A stretch of 16,574 nucleotides of DNA, taken from a virus. Lineage: Duplodnaviria; Heunggongvirae; Uroviricota; Caudoviricetes. Of the stretch, positions 1,942 to 14,099 are shown piece by piece. The DNA is taken from positions 64,001-80,574 of the IMG/VR virus record IMGVR_UViG_3300032156_000005; one strand, 5' to 3'. The notes beneath the pieces were generated by a model that searched no databases, was not told the origin of the DNA, and worked only from the letters and a program-made list of their open reading frames with translations. Position numbers and translations under genes: made by a program. Position 1 is the first letter of the stretch. Each line of letters begins with the position of its first letter.

Positions 1942-3198
1942 ATGTTTGACAGTATATGGACGTTTATTCAAAGCAACTCCTTCTTTAGTGGTGGTGCTGT
2001 ACTAGCTGTACTCGGTGGTATACTCGTATACGCTAGGAGCATTCCAGGGTATCTCTGGACGTGGTCTAAAAATCGTTTAGTTACTGAAATTGACGTACCG
2101 GACAGGGACGAAGCTTTCAAGTGGATGGATATTTGGTTGTCTCAGCATCCATACAAAAAACGTTGTCGTTGGTGGACAGTCCATACAAGACGCCAGCGTG
2201 ATTTCGATGACGGGATCCAACAAGGTTATCGCGAGCGGAAAATTCCAAAGATCATCCTATCACCCGCCCCTGGGGTACACTTTTTATTCTACAAAAGTAA
2301 GTTAATGATTTTGTACCGTGAACGTAAGGATACACAAGGTAAGGGAGACACCGCCGCATTAGGTTTCCGCGAGACATTCACTATTAAACTGTTCAGCCGG
2401 AACAAACAGGTTGTCTACGACTTGTTGGAGGAAGCCCGTTGTGCCGCTAATCCGTTAGACGACGAGCGTCTACGAATTCTTCGACCCGATTACAATGAGT
2501 GGAGCGAAGTGACAAAGCGTTTATTACGCCCATTAAAATCCGTCATACTTGAAGGTGATTTGAGTGGTAGACTTTTAACTGACGTTCGGACCTTCCTTGA
2601 GTCAGAGGAATGGTATAACTCAATTGGGATCCCCTACAGGCGTGGGTATCTATTGTCTGGCCCTCCTGGTAATGGGAAGAGTTCGCTGGTTACTGCAATT
2701 GCGTCCGAATTGCGTTTGGATATTTGCACCTTAAATCTTAGTAACCACGGTCTTAATGACGAAAAACTAACTGAATTAATGGCGAATGTACCCATAAACA
2801 GTTTAGTTTTAATCGAGGATATTGATTGTGTTTTTCATGCACGTAAGAAGGTTGACGATTTGGAGTCTGTAACCTTTTCGGGATTGTTGAACGCTATTGA
2901 TGGTGTTATGTCGAGTGAAGGTCGGTTACTGTTTTGTACAACCAACCACAAAGAAGTCCTGGATCCGGCTCTAACTCGCCCAGGTCGTATAGATGTGGAT
3001 ATTGTGATTGACAATGCCACCCGTGTACAAGCCTCTCAATTATTCATTCGATTTTTTCCAGACATGGCTGATCTTGCAGAGGGCTTTGGCGAGAAGATAA
3101 TGCATGCGCCCGTTTCAATGGCACACTTGCAAGGACACCTTTTGAAATATCGAAACGACCCACTTACAGCCCTTGCCACTCCGATTAGTGAAGCCTAA
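1942..3198 (+). CDS. BCS1: BCS1-family membrane-anchored AAA+ ATPase
   Basis: N-terminal TM helix (FFSGGAVLAVLGGILVYA); BCS1_N-like segments (EAFKWMDIWL, LSPAPGVHFLFYK, RETFTIKLF); GIPYRRGYLLSGPPGNGKS Walker A; LIEDID Walker B; VTFSGLLNAIDG; TTNH..LDPALTRPGRID; C-terminal SMAHLQGHLL. SD GAGGAG at 1931. Confidence 0.88.
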   Translation: MFDSIWTFIQSNSFFSGGAVLAVLGGILVYARSIPGYLWTWSKNRLVTEIDVPDRDEAFKWMDIWLSQHPYKKRCRWWTVHTRRQRDFDDGIQQGYRERKIPKIILSPAPGVHFLFYKSKLMILYRERKDTQGKGDTAALGFRETFTIKLFSRNKQVVYDLLEEARCAANPLDDERLRILRPDYNEWSEVTKRLLRPLKSVILEGDLSGRLLTDVRTFLESEEWYNSIGIPYRRGYLLSGPPGNGKSSLVTAIASELRLDICTLNLSNHGLNDEKLTELMANVPINSLVLIEDIDCVFHARKKVDDLESVTFSGLLNAIDGVMSSEGRLLFCTTNHKEVLDPALTRPGRIDVDIVIDNATRVQASQLFIRFFPDMADLAEGFGEKIMHAPVSMAHLQGHLLKYRNDPLTALATPISEA

Positions 3199-7828: not shown

Positions 7829-8655
7829 ATGAACCCATGCGTCTAAGGCAATGTCGCTACGGACCAATGCTCTATCTGTCCACTGACCAATATATCGGTC
7901 AGGCCCTGGATAAATATGGTGAATTCTCCGAGGGGGAGGTCCATCTGTTTAGACAGATTGTTAAGGAAAACTGGACAGTATTAGATGTAGGTGCGAATCA
8001 CGGGGCTCACACAGTTGCCCTGGCAAAGTTGGTGAGTCAGTGGGGGCATGTCCATGCATTTGAACCACAACGAATTCTGTTCCAAATTGCTTGTGCAAAC
8101 GTGGCACTAAATGCGTTACCCAATGTCTATATGCACAACGTCGCCGTCGGTAGTGCTCCTGGCGTGTTGCATGTTCCACGTGTCGAGTATACACGTGCCA
8201 GTAACTTTGGAGCAGTAGAACTCGGGGATTCTGGCGAACCAGTGCCAGTGATTACTCTAGATTCACTAAATCTAGAGTCCTGCCATTTTATTAAGGCAGA
8301 CGCAGAGGGTATGGAAGGTGAGATTGTTGCTGGTGCAGGAACATTAATATCACGGTTTAAACCAATCTGGTACGTTGAGAATGACCGGGAGGACAAGTCC
8401 CCGAGTTTAATCCAGCAGATGTGGGATCTAGATTATGAACTGTTCTACCATTTACCGTACTACTTTAATGGATATAACTACAGCGGACAAACTGAGAATA
8501 TCTATGGCGGGACAATCTCGGTAAATATGCTGTGTGTCCCACGGACCAGTACATGCAGTTATAATATGCGGACATTAACAATTCCGGAAGGATGCTTCCC
8601 TATTACTAGCATCGCGGACACTTGGAAAACTGTGTATGAATCGTCTAAGAAATAA
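7819..8655 (+). CDS. FkbM-family SAM-dependent methyltransferase
   Basis: VLDVGANHGAHT, VHAFEPQ, FIKADAEGME, PIWYVEN motifs. Confidence 0.92.
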   Translation: MQLNEPMRLRQCRYGPMLYLSTDQYIGQALDKYGEFSEGEVHLFRQIVKENWTVLDVGANHGAHTVALAKLVSQWGHVHAFEPQRILFQIACANVALNALPNVYMHNVAVGSAPGVLHVPRVEYTRASNFGAVELGDSGEPVPVITLDSLNLESCHFIKADAEGMEGEIVAGAGTLISRFKPIWYVENDREDKSPSLIQQMWDLDYELFYHLPYYFNGYNYSGQTENIYGGTISVNMLCVPRTSTCSYNMRTLTIPEGCFPITSIADTWKTVYESSKK

Positions 8656-9178
8656 CCTATGCTATCTTAGTGGTGCGATGGAGTTTATGCCAGACTTTGG
8701 CGCAGACTGGCGTAAAAAGTTCAGGTCGGACTTATCTGATTTGGGCTTGGTATTCCTGGATCCTACAGATAAGCCGATTGATGCAATAGACGAGCCCACA
8801 CTATTGCAAAAGATCAAAGTCGCCCGCGAACTTGAAGACTATGAGACAATCGCAAGCGGGCGTGTCGTCCGTCATATCGATCTGAGAATGTGTGATATGG
8901 CGGGGATTGTGATTGTCAACCTTGATCTGGAGACACCAACCTGTGGTACTTGGGAGGAAATATATGATTCCAATCGGTCAAAGAAACCCATATTAGTACG
9001 TTGTGTCCAGGGTAAGAAGTATGCCCCAGCGTGGTTATTCTGGACGCTGCCACACCAGCATATTTTTTCGACCTGGGAGGAGATTTATACCTACCTCCGA
9101 AATGTTGATTCCGGCGTGGATAATGAATCGTATGGTCGGTGGTTATTTTTTGACCTGACAGGGGAAAAAGTTCGATGA
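8636..9178 (+). CDS. Nucleoside 2-deoxyribosyltransferase-like / N-glycosidase protein
   Basis: YLSGAME..DWR, FLDP, DLRMCD..IVIV, CGTWEEI (catalytic Glu position), KKPILV. Confidence 0.85.
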   Translation: MNRLRNNLCYLSGAMEFMPDFGADWRKKFRSDLSDLGLVFLDPTDKPIDAIDEPTLLQKIKVARELEDYETIASGRVVRHIDLRMCDMAGIVIVNLDLETPTCGTWEEIYDSNRSKKPILVRCVQGKKYAPAWLFWTLPHQHIFSTWEEIYTYLRNVDSGVDNESYGRWLFFDLTGEKVR

Positions 9179-9378
9179 ACGTAGACCAGATATTAGCCGA
9201 TGCAAAGGCAATACTTATATGTAACTCGTCCAGACATACAAGTATGGAGCAAGGTGATTTATCACCCGTCATTGAGGCCAATGACTGGTGGCTCTATTGG
9301 GGGGATAAGTCATACCACCTTGGTAATATGACTGAACAGGAAGCAAGAAATTCCGCCGCATTGAAAATTTCTACTTGA
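9175..9378 (+). CDS. Hypothetical protein (67 aa)
   Basis: ATGA overlap; its stop TGA lies inside the -35 box TTGACA. Confidence 0.65.
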   Translation: MNVDQILADAKAILICNSSRHTSMEQGDLSPVIEANDWWLYWGDKSYHLGNMTEQEARNSAALKIST

Positions 9379-9402
9379 CAAGCCTAGATTCCATGCTATT
9401 AT
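9375..9402 (+). promoter_or_regulatory. Sigma70-type promoter P1 (extended -10), likely leaderless
   Basis: TTGACA (9375-80), 16 nt spacer, TATTAT (9397-9402) preceded by TGc. The ATG at 9409 is at the expected +1 and has no SD. Confidence 0.75.
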
Positions 9403-10232: not shown

Positions 10233-11277
10233 CTTTGAACGAGCTTATCCGATGCCCCCTGGATCACATGTGAGTCGTGTTGCAGACGATACATGTAATA
10301 TACAACAGATCAGACCCAATCATGTGGTAGCGACTATCTCGCATGTTGATGGTTTCGATGGCGTCAGAATTCGCCTGCCTGACGGTGAAAGCTTCTGTCT
10401 AGACGTACATTATACGGATTTAGTGGCAATTGACGCTGAAATTACTCATCGTCTTAATGGACCATATATGGTTCCTATTTCGATGAATCCACGTTATACT
10501 ATTGGATACGATCAGACACTTTCGGAGCAACATCCAATCGATACCGCAAGGACGGCACAGTATTCCAGTATGATTCGTGGAGTAATGGAATCGGGATTCT
10601 TTCGGAACCTCAATATGCAGTGGGCTGCCCCCGAGAGAACTACACCGAGTAGCCCGCCTGAAAGCCGGCAAACTCGCAGAGGATCGACAATTCGACGGAC
10701 GCCGCATAGAAATTATCTGACGTTGATGCCACATTCAAGTTACAAAGAAACAGCGGCGTGTCTTGCCGACTCGGATCTTAAACTTATGCGTGTTGTTGTA
10801 CTCCGTGTCCTTCGGGCTTTGGAGGGCGGGTCAGCCTATAATAATGCGGCAGTACAACTTTGGGTTAATCACAAGCAATCTCTTGTTCGGTATGGTATTG
10901 CCATTGCCATTGAACTACGATCACGCGGTTTTAAGGACACGTCACTGGAAAAATTACGCGACCACTATGAGCCGGGTGACCATGTAAAACCACATTGGGT
11001 TGCCTGGGAGCGTCTGCGTGACTCGCATCGTGCCTACTTAACCCTCAGAGACGAGCGTAGGATCGCTACACAGCGTATTAACCATGCTGGATGGGCATCG
11101 AGAATTGAGTTTTGCGCCCGCGTGGGTATGCAAGCAAAACGATGCTGGATACTTGAAGACATCCAGGAGATCAGACACTCCACACCCAATTCACCATCCC
11201 GGCCCAATTTCTACACACAGCATTGGGTTATCACCCCTGCCGAACACTTTATCTACCCGGAAGAGGCTACATGCTAA
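10225..11277 (+). CDS. Fusion: unknown N-terminal domain, linker, degenerate pyrimidine-dimer DNA glycosylase-like (MSMEG_6728-type) domain
   Basis: TLMPHSSYKETAACLAD..MRV..LRVLRAL, AVQLW..H..SLVRYGIAI..E..RGFKDT, PHW...SHRAYL follow the MQTFLPY..RLGKQRVE..HPA..MW..RG..DT..PPW..SHR family pattern. Confidence 0.75.
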   Translation: MPSFERAYPMPPGSHVSRVADDTCNIQQIRPNHVVATISHVDGFDGVRIRLPDGESFCLDVHYTDLVAIDAEITHRLNGPYMVPISMNPRYTIGYDQTLSEQHPIDTARTAQYSSMIRGVMESGFFRNLNMQWAAPERTTPSSPPESRQTRRGSTIRRTPHRNYLTLMPHSSYKETAACLADSDLKLMRVVVLRVLRALEGGSAYNNAAVQLWVNHKQSLVRYGIAIAIELRSRGFKDTSLEKLRDHYEPGDHVKPHWVAWERLRDSHRAYLTLRDERRIATQRINHAGWASRIEFCARVGMQAKRCWILEDIQEIRHSTPNSPSRPNFYTQHWVITPAEHFIYPEEATC

Positions 11278-11663
11278 ATATAAAAGCACTAATCGATCTC
11301 GTCAATGGGCTACGCGGACTAGTCACGGAGCCGGTACGAAGTGAAATAGCACATCGCATGGCAGCTATGGTTGCCGTTGCCCTGCATGACTCGGAAAACT
11401 ATAAATCCTGGCTTATAAAAGACAAGTTTCAATTTTTTAGGGCTTGTGATATTGTTAATTTGGAGAGATGGGTTCCAGATACGCTCCAGATTGAACCAAC
11501 AAAATTGTCAGAATTTTGTAGCAGATGGATGTCGTGTAACTTATTTCGATTGCGTAATGACCCCTCTTCCGAGTGGCGTCCTATTACACCCGAGCAAAAT
11601 TCACTCCGGGTTACAATGGTGGAGGAATTACAAACACTGGCACTTGACAACTCTAAGAAATAG
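11271..11663 (+). CDS. Hypothetical protein (130 aa)
   Basis: ATG 11271 with GAGG upstream, overlapping the previous stop. Confidence 0.7.
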   Translation: MLNIKALIDLVNGLRGLVTEPVRSEIAHRMAAMVAVALHDSENYKSWLIKDKFQFFRACDIVNLERWVPDTLQIEPTKLSEFCSRWMSCNLFRLRNDPSSEWRPITPEQNSLRVTMVEELQTLALDNSKK

Positions 11664-11671
11664 TGTATAGT
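11644..11671 (+). promoter_or_regulatory. Sigma70-type promoter P2 upstream of the paralogue array
   Basis: TTGACA (11644-49), 16 nt spacer, TATAGT (11666-71); ATG at 11680 without a clear SD. Shares ACTTGACAAnnCTA with P1. Confidence 0.72.
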
Positions 11672-11679
11672 TATGGTAT

Positions 11680-12003
11680 ATGACGATACCCAATCGACTA
11701 ACTCAGATATTGAACGGGCTCTCTGCACCGGCGGTTTACAGCTTAGTGGTCGCACTGGGGCGAGAGAACGTATACGTTCACTGGAAGGGTCAACGGATCT
11801 TTTTGAGGGATTTGGTTCGCAAGGAGGACGTGGCTTGGAGGATGGCGAGGGACACAGACATGATCTTATTCTGGGGTGGTCCCCCAACGAAAAGAATGTG
11901 TTACTGGGGGAATCTACATACATTAGCCGTAGATCATGTACGAACTTATTTATGCCATCGAACGATCGTCGAGCTATACCGTGCGATGGGGGTGACACCA
12001 TGA
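11680..12003 (+). CDS. GGPP-family paralogue 1 (107 aa)
   Basis: ILFWGGPPTKRMCYWGNLHTLAVDHV; ATGA-coupled to the next gene. Confidence 0.85.
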   Translation: MTIPNRLTQILNGLSAPAVYSLVVALGRENVYVHWKGQRIFLRDLVRKEDVAWRMARDTDMILFWGGPPTKRMCYWGNLHTLAVDHVRTYLCHRTIVELYRAMGVTP

Positions 12004-12329
12004 GTATTTACAAAAAATTAGAGCAGAAGATGCATAATCTCTCTGCAAGCCGGGCTGCAAATTACCTGAATTATAGCTTTGACGCTGGGTTTGAGGAGTT
12101 GGAGATGAATGGACTCGTGTCGTCCCCAATCCAATTAATGAGCGATCTACCTGGGTTGCACCCCGTGCCGGCACGCGAGGTTGCACCCATATCTTTTTGG
12201 GGCGGACCACCGGGAAAACAACGCTGGTATGACGGCAGTCTTTTAACGGTGTTGATAGACCACATTCTACGGGCGTCAGAGAACGGCAATAAAAGTTTAC
12301 TTGAGCGATTTTTGACACTATACACATGA
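12000..12329 (+). CDS. GGPP-family paralogue 2 (109 aa)
   Basis: PISFWGGPPGKQRWYDGSLLTVLIDHI; true start ATG 12000 (ATGA, GGGGGTG upstream) rather than 11673. Confidence 0.85.
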   Translation: MSIYKKLEQKMHNLSASRAANYLNYSFDAGFEELEMNGLVSSPIQLMSDLPGLHPVPAREVAPISFWGGPPGKQRWYDGSLLTVLIDHILRASENGNKSLLERFLTLYT

Positions 12330-12676
12330 GAAAAAAGAATCCACTCGCACAAGCAGAATCTTTGTTGGGGCATTTTGAACCGGTGAATGTGGACTGTGCT
12401 TACACTTTAACGTATGCTCTAGGGCACCACGACACTGAATTTTTGTTGCTCAGTCCGAATGCTATAACAACTGCTAGGCAGATATATAACGGTTCGGCAT
12501 ATAGTAAATTGGCGAAAAAAATACCAATCAAATTTTACGGTGGACCCCTGGGTGGCGGTAAATGGTATACTGGCACCTTGCATACATTTTTGATTGACTG
12601 CATCGCGGCTAAGATCCAAATGGAGGGCTTTGAAAAAACCCGCCAGATACTGAGGATGAAGAGTTGTCCATTCTAG
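12326..12676 (+). CDS. GGPP-family paralogue 3 (116 aa)
   Basis: PIKFYGGPLGGGKWYTGTLHTFLIDCI. Confidence 0.85.
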   Translation: MRKKNPLAQAESLLGHFEPVNVDCAYTLTYALGHHDTEFLLLSPNAITTARQIYNGSAYSKLAKKIPIKFYGGPLGGGKWYTGTLHTFLIDCIAAKIQMEGFEKTRQILRMKSCPF

Positions 12677-12993
12677 ATCAACTGCATGAGTATCATCTCG
12701 GTTTAACTGTTGAACAGTTTACTAGAAATATGCATGTAATGGGTGCCAGTACAGAACCACTAGTCATACCTGCATTCAGACACTGTGTTGTGTGGGAGTT
12801 AGATTCCACATCATTCGCATTGGCCAGGGCGATACGCATCCCATGCACTTTTTATGGCGGACCACCACAATCGCATGGTATGTTTACAGGTACACTACTA
12901 ACAATGTTCCTGGATAGATTGTTGACCGCGATTAAGTTCCATAACTTTGATGCAATCGATAGATTTCTTCCGAAGACACAGTATGGCATTTGA
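12664..12993 (+). CDS. GGPP-family paralogue 4 (109 aa)
   Basis: PCTFYGGPPQSHGMFTGTLLTMFLDRL; TTG start with GAGG 8 nt upstream. Confidence 0.85.
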   Translation: MSILDQLHEYHLGLTVEQFTRNMHVMGASTEPLVIPAFRHCVVWELDSTSFALARAIRIPCTFYGGPPQSHGMFTGTLLTMFLDRLLTAIKFHNFDAIDRFLPKTQYGI

Positions 12994-13312
12994 CACTCAC
13001 TTGTTGGCTGAACTCTCTGACATCAGTGCCTATGAGGCATTCGACCTACTCTGTACAGAATTTTCATTGGGAGGGTCGTGCATTAGTTTTATTCGCACAA
13101 GAAATCGTGCGGAAGTACGAACGTTTCTTACTGCTAATTACCTGCAAGGAGTATCGGCCTCTGACGTCGGCCCCATTGAATTTTGGGGTGGACCACCACA
13201 GAAAAAGAGTTACTATTCCGGGACACTACTAACATATCTTTTTGACGCAATCCTACACAGCCACGCTCTCAATGGAAACTACGCAGAACTCATTCAAAAT
13301 GAAGCGGATTAA
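12983..13312 (+). CDS. GGPP-family paralogue 5 (109 aa)
   Basis: PIEFWGGPPQKKSYYSGTLLTYLFDAI; ATG 12983 chosen by length and overlap parity. Confidence 0.85.
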   Translation: MAFDTHLLAELSDISAYEAFDLLCTEFSLGGSCISFIRTRNRAEVRTFLTANYLQGVSASDVGPIEFWGGPPQKKSYYSGTLLTYLFDAILHSHALNGNYAELIQNEAD

Positions 13313-13628
13313 TTTTACACTACTGAATAATAGATTCAAGAACCTAAACGCCCTGGACGCATTGGAATTGATTTGTTGGACATTCCAAGGGAGTGAAGCG
13401 TGGATAACATACAAAGGTGCCAGGACTAAGGTACTTGACCTGTATGACGACATTACAATCCCCACATTTCTGGCCTCGGAGGTGAGTATACAATTTTATG
13501 GCGGACCACCCACGGTAAAACGATGGTGGCAGGGCACCCTATTGACGCTGTTAATGGACCGCTTTCTCTATTCGTATTCAATTAAAGACTTCAAAAAAAT
13601 TCACATCGCTTTAAAAGTGCCAGCATGA
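13299..13628 (+). CDS. GGPP-family paralogue 6 (109 aa)
   Basis: SIQFYGGPPTVKRWWQGTLLTLLMDRF; ATG 13299. Confidence 0.85.
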   Translation: MKRINFTLLNNRFKNLNALDALELICWTFQGSEAWITYKGARTKVLDLYDDITIPTFLASEVSIQFYGGPPTVKRWWQGTLLTLLMDRFLYSYSIKDFKKIHIALKVPA

Positions 13629-13933
13629 GATCCATTTCCGAATATGAGCGTACTTTTAGTCATATTTCAGTTGGTTTGGCATTAGATTTGCTCAATGATC
13701 TACAGGTATCCGATGATCGCATATTGGCCTATCACCCCGGAGAAGAGAAAATTACGATTACAACGGCACCAGAGTATTGCGCTAAAATTAATCCGGCATA
13801 TCTCGCATCTAGTGTTGGACCCATTCAATTCCTTGGGGGACCACCAGGAAGAGAAAATTGGACCGACGGAACTTTATTAACATTTGTTATGGACAAGGTC
13901 ATGTACAGAGACGCAATGAGGGCGGCGAGTTAA
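13625..13933 (+). CDS. GGPP-family paralogue 7 (102 aa)
   Basis: PIQFLGGPPGRENWTDGTLLTFVMDKV; ATGA overlap. Confidence 0.85.
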   Translation: MRSISEYERTFSHISVGLALDLLNDLQVSDDRILAYHPGEEKITITTAPEYCAKINPAYLASSVGPIQFLGGPPGRENWTDGTLLTFVMDKVMYRDAMRAAS

Positions 13934-13934
13934 G

Positions 13935-14099
13935 ATGGGACACACATACCGACGTAACGACGACTATAGTTATAAACAGGACCATCGTGTACGGGACGAA
14001 AAGAAGTTGAAAAAACTAAACAAAAAGTTGCAAAAACTCACCAATCGGAAGCAACTCTTGGTGGCACCAGTCATTCAAGAGGGTACGGAATTAGTTTAA
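13935..14099 (+). CDS. Small Lys/Arg-rich protein (54 aa), absent from the ORF track
   Basis: MGHTYRRNDDYSYKQDHRVRDEKKLKKLNKKLQKLTNRKQLLVAPVIQEGTELV; starts 1 nt after the upstream stop and exactly fills the gap. Confidence 0.65.
   Translation: MGHTYRRNDDYSYKQDHRVRDEKKLKKLNKKLQKLTNRKQLLVAPVIQEGTELV

Follow-up and report, generated by a model that had tools for sequence, protein, structure and literature searches.

Seven overlapping genes on the + strand of an uncultured phage genome encode diverged copies of a new, uncatalogued family of small proteins, and comparison with related arrays identified them, on sequence evidence, as an old ordered cassette rather than a recently expanding arsenal. 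The genes, referred to here as og1 to og7 (11680-13933; products of 102-116 amino acids, aa), lie in the IMG/VR virus record IMGVR_UViG_3300032156_000005. The window, by which we mean the whole stretch of 16,574 nucleotides (nt) analysed here, covers positions 64,001 to 80,574 and is the final 16.5 kb of this 80.5 kb record, whose completeness was estimated at ~60%. Our preferred reading, to which we give a probability of roughly 0.4, is that the cassette would supply a panel of specialised binders that share one scaffold and are produced jointly soon after infection.

An ordered cassette of an undescribed protein family

All seven genes are on the + strand, with a start-to-start spacing of 316-338 nt. 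The first cistron, og1 (11680..12003, 107 aa), has no Shine-Dalgarno sequence and is followed by og2 (12000..12329, 109 aa) and og3 (12326..12676, 116 aa), each of which starts in an ATGA overlap with the stop codon of the gene before it. The fourth gene, og4 (12664..12993, 109 aa), begins with TTG and overlaps og3 by 13 nt; og5 (12983..13312, 109 aa) overlaps og4 by 11 nt, og6 (13299..13628, 109 aa) overlaps og5 by 14 nt, and og7 (13625..13933, 102 aa) begins in an ATGA overlap with og6. The products differ in charge, og3 being consistently basic, og5 consistently acidic and og7 acidic. An earlier description of this DNA, made from its letters alone and called here the sequence-only reading, had listed the same seven open reading frames (ORFs) and sizes, the three ATGA junctions (og1/2, og2/3 and og6/7) and the three overlaps of 11-14 nt, and all of these are in the sequence as described.

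Overall identity among the seven proteins was only 17-25%, and their alignment contained no run of 7-10 conserved columns. All seven window copies lie in the family's size range of ~100-125 aa and carry the core F-x-G-G-P-P, x7, G-x-L-x-T-x3-D with a preceding conserved alanine. Nine positions were invariant (A56, F64, G66, G67, P68, G77, L79, T81 and D85 in og1 numbering), and the same nine (A59, F67, G69, G70, P71, G80, L82, T84 and D88 in profile numbering) were ~100% conserved in 191 sequences covering all seven orthogroups. Across these 191 sequences the N-terminal helices and the middle of the protein differed between orthogroups and were conserved inside each. The two N-terminal helices follow the pattern L-x2-L-[ST]-x3-A-x2-L-L, and orthogroup signatures include R-x-V-N-Y-L-x-Y-x-F in og2, A-Q-A-E-S-L-L-G-H-F-K-P in og3, W-E-L in og4 and D-L-Y-D in og6. 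As judged from these alignments, the family combines a common core with seven different, individually conserved faces. The conserved scaffold with variable segments proposed in the sequence-only reading was thereby recovered, the variable parts proving to be paralogue-specific and conserved among orthologues.

At the DNA level, the GGPP codons read GGACCACC in five of the seven copies (window 11866-13870), CCA being the commonest proline codon of the phage. We considered GGACCACC as a DNA-level element and rejected it, because relatives encode GGPP with other codons; the recurrence of GGACCACC reflects the codon choice of the phage.

Relatives were collected with a back-translated motif scan, which yielded nine further virus records (56-175 kb, some of them fragments) and 80 metagenome loci. 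A profile built from the seven copies found exactly seven copies in the window's own record and matched tandem homologues in the nine other records at E values of 1e-6 to 1e-31, in arrays of 5-7 members. Together with the nine invariant positions, these matches place the paralogy that the sequence-only reading had drawn from the C-terminal core far beyond chance. An exhaustive profile search of 1.84 billion protein cluster representatives returned 313 relatives, 115 of them at E<=1e-10. The best 150 of the 313 were ~100-145 aa long, or were longer ORFs (261 aa at most) that carry the domain C-terminally, and no named protein was found among these metagenomic cluster representatives.

Searches of annotated collections gave no known family. 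None of the seven proteins matched Pfam or PHROG at E<=1, and a Pfam scan of 130 family members gave singleton noise matches only (E<=0.05); these two sets, at these thresholds, are the scope of all Pfam results below. The family profile found nothing among PDB sequences at E below 0.09. Cultured phages contained no homologue by DNA search or by tblastn with og2, and a motif scan of species-representative genomes gave three matches, all of them chance and none with a profile match. The family is confined to a clade of uncultured phages. It represents a previously undescribed alpha/beta domain of ~108 residues, and the sequence-only reading was right to leave it unassigned, as no characterised domain emerged from the profile, Pfam, PHROG, PDB or cultured-phage searches.

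AlphaFold2 models were confident for both proteins modelled, og1 (predicted local distance difference test, pLDDT, 92.5; predicted template modelling score, pTM, 0.84) and og6 (pLDDT 95.3, pTM 0.88). Both had the order H-H-EE-h-h-EE-H-H, that is, two helices, a beta-hairpin, two short helices, a second hairpin with the GGPP turn, and two helices, giving four strands in two hairpins and six helices. The paralogues thus share a predicted fold, as their common ancestry would require. Neither model was matched at E<=0.001 or a template modelling (TM) score >=0.5 by Foldseek against PDB, AFDB clusters and BFVD or by an ESM Atlas shape search. A wide VIA-align comparison gave best Z scores of 5.0 and 4.2 for the two models, mostly to death-fold and SAP bundles, against a stated noise level of Z 7-8. 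Death-fold chains (DD/CARD/DED) filled much of both lists, all below that level; the helical part of both models aligned with them weakly (Z 3.0-5.0, 61-77 residues, root-mean-square deviation (rmsd) 2.9-4.4), and the SAP domain of PIAS1 aligned at Z 4.2, also below noise. The two beta-hairpins, which carry all invariant residues, have no counterpart in death-fold or SAP bundles, and Pfam gave no Death, CARD or DED match to the seven or to the 130 members. Feature leads from the Atlas pointed to Peptidase_M61 for og2 (0.95) and to DDE_Tnp_ISL3 for og6 (0.92). These were rejected as noise because the two paralogues disagree and no profile supports either; for Peptidase_M61, none of the seven contains HExxH, and neither the seven nor the 130 members matched PF05299. 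The modelled fold may be new, being unmatched at the sensitivity of the libraries searched.

The history of the copies was examined in a maximum-likelihood tree of 66 members from ten genomes. Members clustered by array position and not by genome: og1 and og2 each formed one clade across the 10 genomes, og3-og7 were recovered for the eight closer genomes, and the position label was never as clustered when shuffled (0/200). Orthogroup-specific profiles placed all 177 retrieved database homologues in seven groups, with margins mostly of 20-130 bits. Orthologues of the window copies were 31-66% identical, with nonsynonymous divergence (pN) of 0.23-0.50 against synonymous divergence (pS) of 0.64-0.93, the latter saturated. 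Because the copies cluster by position, sort into seven orthogroups and have pN well below a saturated pS, the duplications are judged to predate the divergence of these phages, with every copy since kept by purifying selection. The sequence-only reading had offered, as one possibility, a panel with each member tuned to a different target allele, and it is this diversifying arsenal that the comparison does not support.

Array size was variable. Seven of the ten virus records had arrays of 7, two had 6 (without og4) and one had 5; the 21 metagenome arrays flanked on both sides had 7 members (seven arrays), 6 (seven), 5 (six) or 4 (one). Arrays always started with og1-og2, stayed collinear and lay directly 3' of a conserved gene, o146. 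Smaller variants of the composition 1-2-3-5-6-7 and 1-2-5-6-7 recurred, og4 was the orthogroup most often lost, and in one lineage an og4-like copy replaced og5. More than seven members in tandem were never seen in the virus records or metagenome arrays. The sequence-only reading had named a fixed seven-gene set under purifying selection as an outcome that would speak against a diversifying arsenal and for a complex; purifying selection was found on all copies, and the number was found not to be fixed (7, 6, 5 or 4).

Two further observations concern array structure. A lone, very diverged copy lies 2-9 kb downstream of the array in the relatives L026 (~11135-11546), L023 (~8489-8876), L025 (copy 6 of G007), L064 and L066; the window's record ends before the equivalent place. 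In G009 (L027:4306-4950, - strand), a single 215-aa ORF runs in frame through og5 and og6 without a linker and retains an internal ATG at the og6 start. No other of ~40 arrays shows this join, which could be a genuine fusion or an artefact of assembly.

Array promoter and a second reading frame over og1

A sigma-70-type promoter, TTGACA-N16-TATAGT, is present on the + strand at 11644..11671 (-35 box 11644-11649, -10 box 11666-11671) and agrees with 11 of 12 consensus positions. Only 6 sites of equal quality occur in the whole 80.5 kb record. This promoter had been picked out in the sequence-only reading, and it proved to be conserved: of 31 related arrays, 19 have a site of at least 10/12 ahead of og1, compared with only 4 of 116 control windows. 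In the window, 8 nt separate the -10 box from the og1 ATG; in 17 of the 31 arrays this gap was 8 nt (12 arrays), 6 nt (4) or 7 nt (1). As the -10 box ends 6-8 nt before the ATG, and no Shine-Dalgarno sequence fits between them, the transcript probably starts at or next to the og1 ATG, which would make the mRNA leaderless or nearly so. The lambda cI transcript from P_RM is a leaderless phage mRNA, and the likeness to it lies in an ATG at the predicted transcription start. A second, near-consensus promoter in the window, TTGACA-N16-TATTAT with an upstream TG (9375-9402), has the same leaderless layout, with 6 nt between its end and ATG 9409, the start of a conserved 175-aa ORF.

Most of the later cistrons are without a Shine-Dalgarno sequence and have start codons that overlap the preceding stop, an arrangement that implies termination-reinitiation coupling. 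The layout for co-expression described in the sequence-only reading, with a conserved promoter of its own and coupled translation, is therefore retained. We infer early timing solely from the host-type promoter.

The first gene of the array is overlain by a longer ORF (11673..12329, + strand, 218 aa), which starts at ATG 11673 in the og2 frame (the -1 frame of og1), spans all of og1 and continues into og2. The sequence-only reading had noted this ORF as one that hides the first member. It does overlie og1 in another frame; it is not merely a nuisance to annotation, since the frame is kept open in 13 arrays. In 6 of the 10 virus records (G000, G003, G004, G006, G008 and G009) the og2 frame was stop-free over og1, whereas the same frame of the other array members in those records contained 3-17 stops. 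When synonymous codons were resampled, the probability of zero stops was between 0.02 and below 5e-5 per genome; when each gene's own codons were permuted, it ranged from 0.0001 to 0.26. With synonymous sites saturated, each genome comes close to being an independent trial. Seven further metagenome arrays, all canonical 1-7 or 1-2-3-5-6-7, were also stop-free, making the total of 13 (L106 was open as well, is the same contig as G009 and was not counted separately). Outgroup arrays had 1-14 stops in this frame, and openness was limited to one subclade. Within that subclade, the second frame over og1 is open beyond chance across diverged genomes.

Long forms made up 16 of the 47 og2 database representatives. 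The in-frame upstream ATG lies 4-22 nt before the og1 ATG, and 7 nt before it in the window. The extension peptide shows little conservation and has a high content of G, R, S and T, and pS of og1 was not clearly lower than that of the other copies; openness, and not a particular sequence, seems to be under selection. The og1 region may therefore be dual-coding, with a long og2 isoform as the candidate product. This situation resembles that of overprinted viral genes (reviewed in PMC8227390) in that a gene has a stop-free second frame over it, whose new peptide has low complexity and little conservation. It differs in that the second frame runs into the next paralogue and would give it a long N-terminal extension.

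The position of the extra ATG bears on its use. In the window and in G003 it lies 1 nt past the -10 box and cannot be on a transcript from the array promoter; it would be usable only on read-through from o146. In G004 it lies 6 nt past the -10 box and would itself be a leaderless start, and in G006 it overlaps the o146 stop (ATGA). The stop-free frame may serve a long og2 isoform, -1 shifted og1-og2 chimeras, or ribosome delivery to og2.

Proposed function and alternative readings

We favour the panel of specialised binders, which agrees with a distribution limited to phages, a promoter of the host type, seven individually conserved faces and the tolerance of losing single members. Small genes behind host-type promoters in non-structural regions of phage genomes are typically early host-directed factors. 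In the proposed sequence of events, host RNA polymerase would transcribe a leaderless mRNA from the array promoter, probably early, and ribosomes would be handed from cistron to cistron so that all copies are made together. The invariant hairpin-helix core would act as a common scaffold or common docking site, and the paralogue-specific N-terminal and middle surfaces would give each copy a partner of its own. The set would then act in parallel as small binders of the host take-over or counter-defence kind.

Several findings weigh against this proposal. Genes in an arms race do not usually form stable orthogroups under purifying selection. The polar T84 and D88 are invariant in all seven paralogues, which suggests a single ligand or interface common to them all. 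A complex would likewise be served by the tight coupling of translation and by the complementary charges (og3 basic, og5 and og7 acidic), and the position of the array among DNA-modification and repair genes is compatible with a nucleic-acid role.

The nearest analogy in kind to the cassette is provided by SUKH arrays. SUKH proteins are small alpha+beta proteins that have a beta-hairpin with a glycine-rich turn. In bacterial toxin loci and DNA viruses, as many as six diverged paralogues of these Smi1/Knr4-type immunity proteins can be encoded in tandem (Zhang, Iyer and Aravind 2011, PMC3113570), and the authors leave the same choice between one complex and several specificities. The SUKH core consists of four helices and six strands, arranged as a beta-hairpin plus a four-stranded meander (PMC3113570); the six-strand core is absent from our models, with their two hairpins and six helices. 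No SUKH-family Pfam match was found for the seven members (E<=1) or the 130 (E<=0.05), and no SUKH structure was among the fold matches listed, which does not exclude the family. Unlike SUKH toxin loci, the cassette has no toxin gene near it.

A hetero-oligomer is the main alternative to the binder panel, possible if doubtful. The members would be quasi-equivalent subunits of a ring or stack, the core would be the repeated interface or a shared ligand site, and gene order and coupling would yield near-equal amounts. The same orthogroups do occur in the same order in many diverged phages, with overlapping stop and start codons, complementary charges among members and a core that is invariant in all paralogues, its polar T and D included; overlapping genes, however, are common in phages whatever their function. 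Eukaryotic Sm/Lsm and 20S proteasome rings are hetero-heptameric rings of paralogues, and the cassette is like them in having seven diverged ~100-residue paralogues that share a motif and would be made together. The Sm fold is an N-terminal helix followed by a strongly bent five-stranded beta-sheet. The fold order of our models differs from it, and natural arrays of 4-6 members exist. To our knowledge there is no phage hetero-heptamer that could serve as a precedent, which counts against this alternative.

Array size bears on the same question in both directions. Tandem arrays never exceed seven, as a ring would have it, and the remark in the sequence-only reading that seven would suit a ring is weakened by complete natural arrays of 6 (lacking og4), 5 (lacking og3 and og4) and 4 members. 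Such arrays fit poorly with an obligate hetero-heptamer: some relatives have only 6, 5 or 4 members, which argues against an obligate seven-membered ring, and a looser or modular assembly may be compatible with the variation. The in-frame og5-og6 ORF of G009 would suit neighbouring subunits, but the join is a single case that could be an assembly error. Prediction of an og5 + og6 complex scored 0.07 against a mark of 0.32 and counts neither way.

A joint reading of the array and the second frame is unlikely in our estimation. It supposes one modular assembly of at most seven quasi-equivalent subunits, with a fold unseen in structure libraries and a composition switched at the 5' end. Leaderless transcripts from the array's own promoter would yield og1 and short og2, and upstream read-through would use the ATG 7 nt earlier to make long og2, its first ~110 residues coming from the -1 frame of og1, in place of og1.

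It is improbable that the proteins bind nucleic acid on behalf of the DNA-modification and repair genes nearby, for instance as a coat or mark on phage DNA or as a block to host nucleases acting there. The neighbours invite the idea (a DNA methylase, an FkbM methyltransferase, a DeoC aldolase, a deoxyribosyltransferase-like gene, a DenV-like glycosylase and MazG-like genes), but adjacency by itself is weak evidence in a phage genome. The N-terminal two-helix pattern described above and the similarity to SAP-type bundles (Z 4.2, 58 residues aligned, rmsd 3.2) would agree with it; that similarity, however, is at noise level, and no SAP, HeH or Rho_N profile matched the seven or the 130 members. 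Net charge is also not consistently positive, og5 and og7 being acidic. Finally, a chance run of ORFs or a set of decaying, functionless duplicates, for which nothing speaks beyond the absence of annotation, is refuted by homologues in other phages at E values down to 1e-31, purifying selection, confident folds and the conserved promoter.

Genomic setting and significance of the cassette

A sediment metagenome was the only sequencing run found to contain the window and is possibly its source sample; no RNA run was among the runs listed as containing the window. The + strand carries all sizeable genes of the window. Upstream of the cassette are genes for a GNAT acetyltransferase, a radical-SAM/SPASM enzyme, a BCS1-type AAA ATPase, an M28 peptidase and an N6/N4 DNA methylase, as well as the DeoC aldolase, FkbM methyltransferase, deoxyribosyltransferase-like and DenV-like glycosylase genes mentioned above; downstream are small ORFs and the MazG-like genes. 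The cassette region is a non-structural, auxiliary part of a large phage genome. The order NDT-like, o67, o175, o98, DenV-like, o146, array, o54, then o85b, o179 and MazG is common to the nine other records.

The upstream neighbour o146 (11271..11663, + strand; ~130 aa from ATG 11271, with the ORF open from 11223) is conserved, and the -35 box of the array sits inside its last codons. It directly precedes the array in all nine other records, in eight of them by BLAST (35-63% identity) and in G004 under the BLAST threshold, and had no Pfam, PHROG or Atlas match. Downstream, a gene for a 54-aa basic peptide (o54; 13935..14099, + strand) starts 2 nt past the og7 stop, is 56-70% identical in the closest relatives (G003, G008 and G009) and is probably on the same transcript as the array. 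Both o146 and the 54-aa peptide gene may belong to the same functional unit as the array.

Further searches around the cassette added little. A search for related loci with an upstream 350-aa gene found nothing, and Rfam, tRNA and repeat scans gave nothing apart from the motif itself. An antisense ORF at 11429-12001 was rejected, as relatives do not keep its frame open. In G008 (L026:922-1460) the match to the deoxyribosyltransferase-like gene is split into two overlapping parts that differ in frame, suggestive of a frameshift or an error in assembly.

The BCS1-type AAA ATPase (window 1942-3198) is conserved far better than the array (58-82% identity). All eight records with canonical og1-7 have it, and it was not found in the two that are divergent and incomplete; relatives at ~30% identity occur in Caulobacter and Brevundimonas jumbo phages. 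Bcs1 is heptameric. A functional linkage between the BCS1-like AAA ATPase and the array was considered, and no claim is made because shared ancestry accounts for the pattern of co-occurrence.

Ordered arrays of small paralogues are common in large phages, and we know of almost none with an established function. The cassette offers a clean case for study. The family is well sampled, with 313 cluster representatives and seven orthogroups among those retrieved, and two very confident fold models are without a match in any structure library searched. The second frame over og1, stop-free in 13 diverged arrays, is a candidate for overprinting within an array of paralogues that has solid statistical backing, and gene callers systematically report the long ORF in these phages and overlook og1. 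The conserved promoter layout predicts a leaderless polycistronic mRNA, and the natural arrays of 7, 6, 5 and 4 members would constitute a ready-made deletion series for distinguishing a complex from independent effectors.

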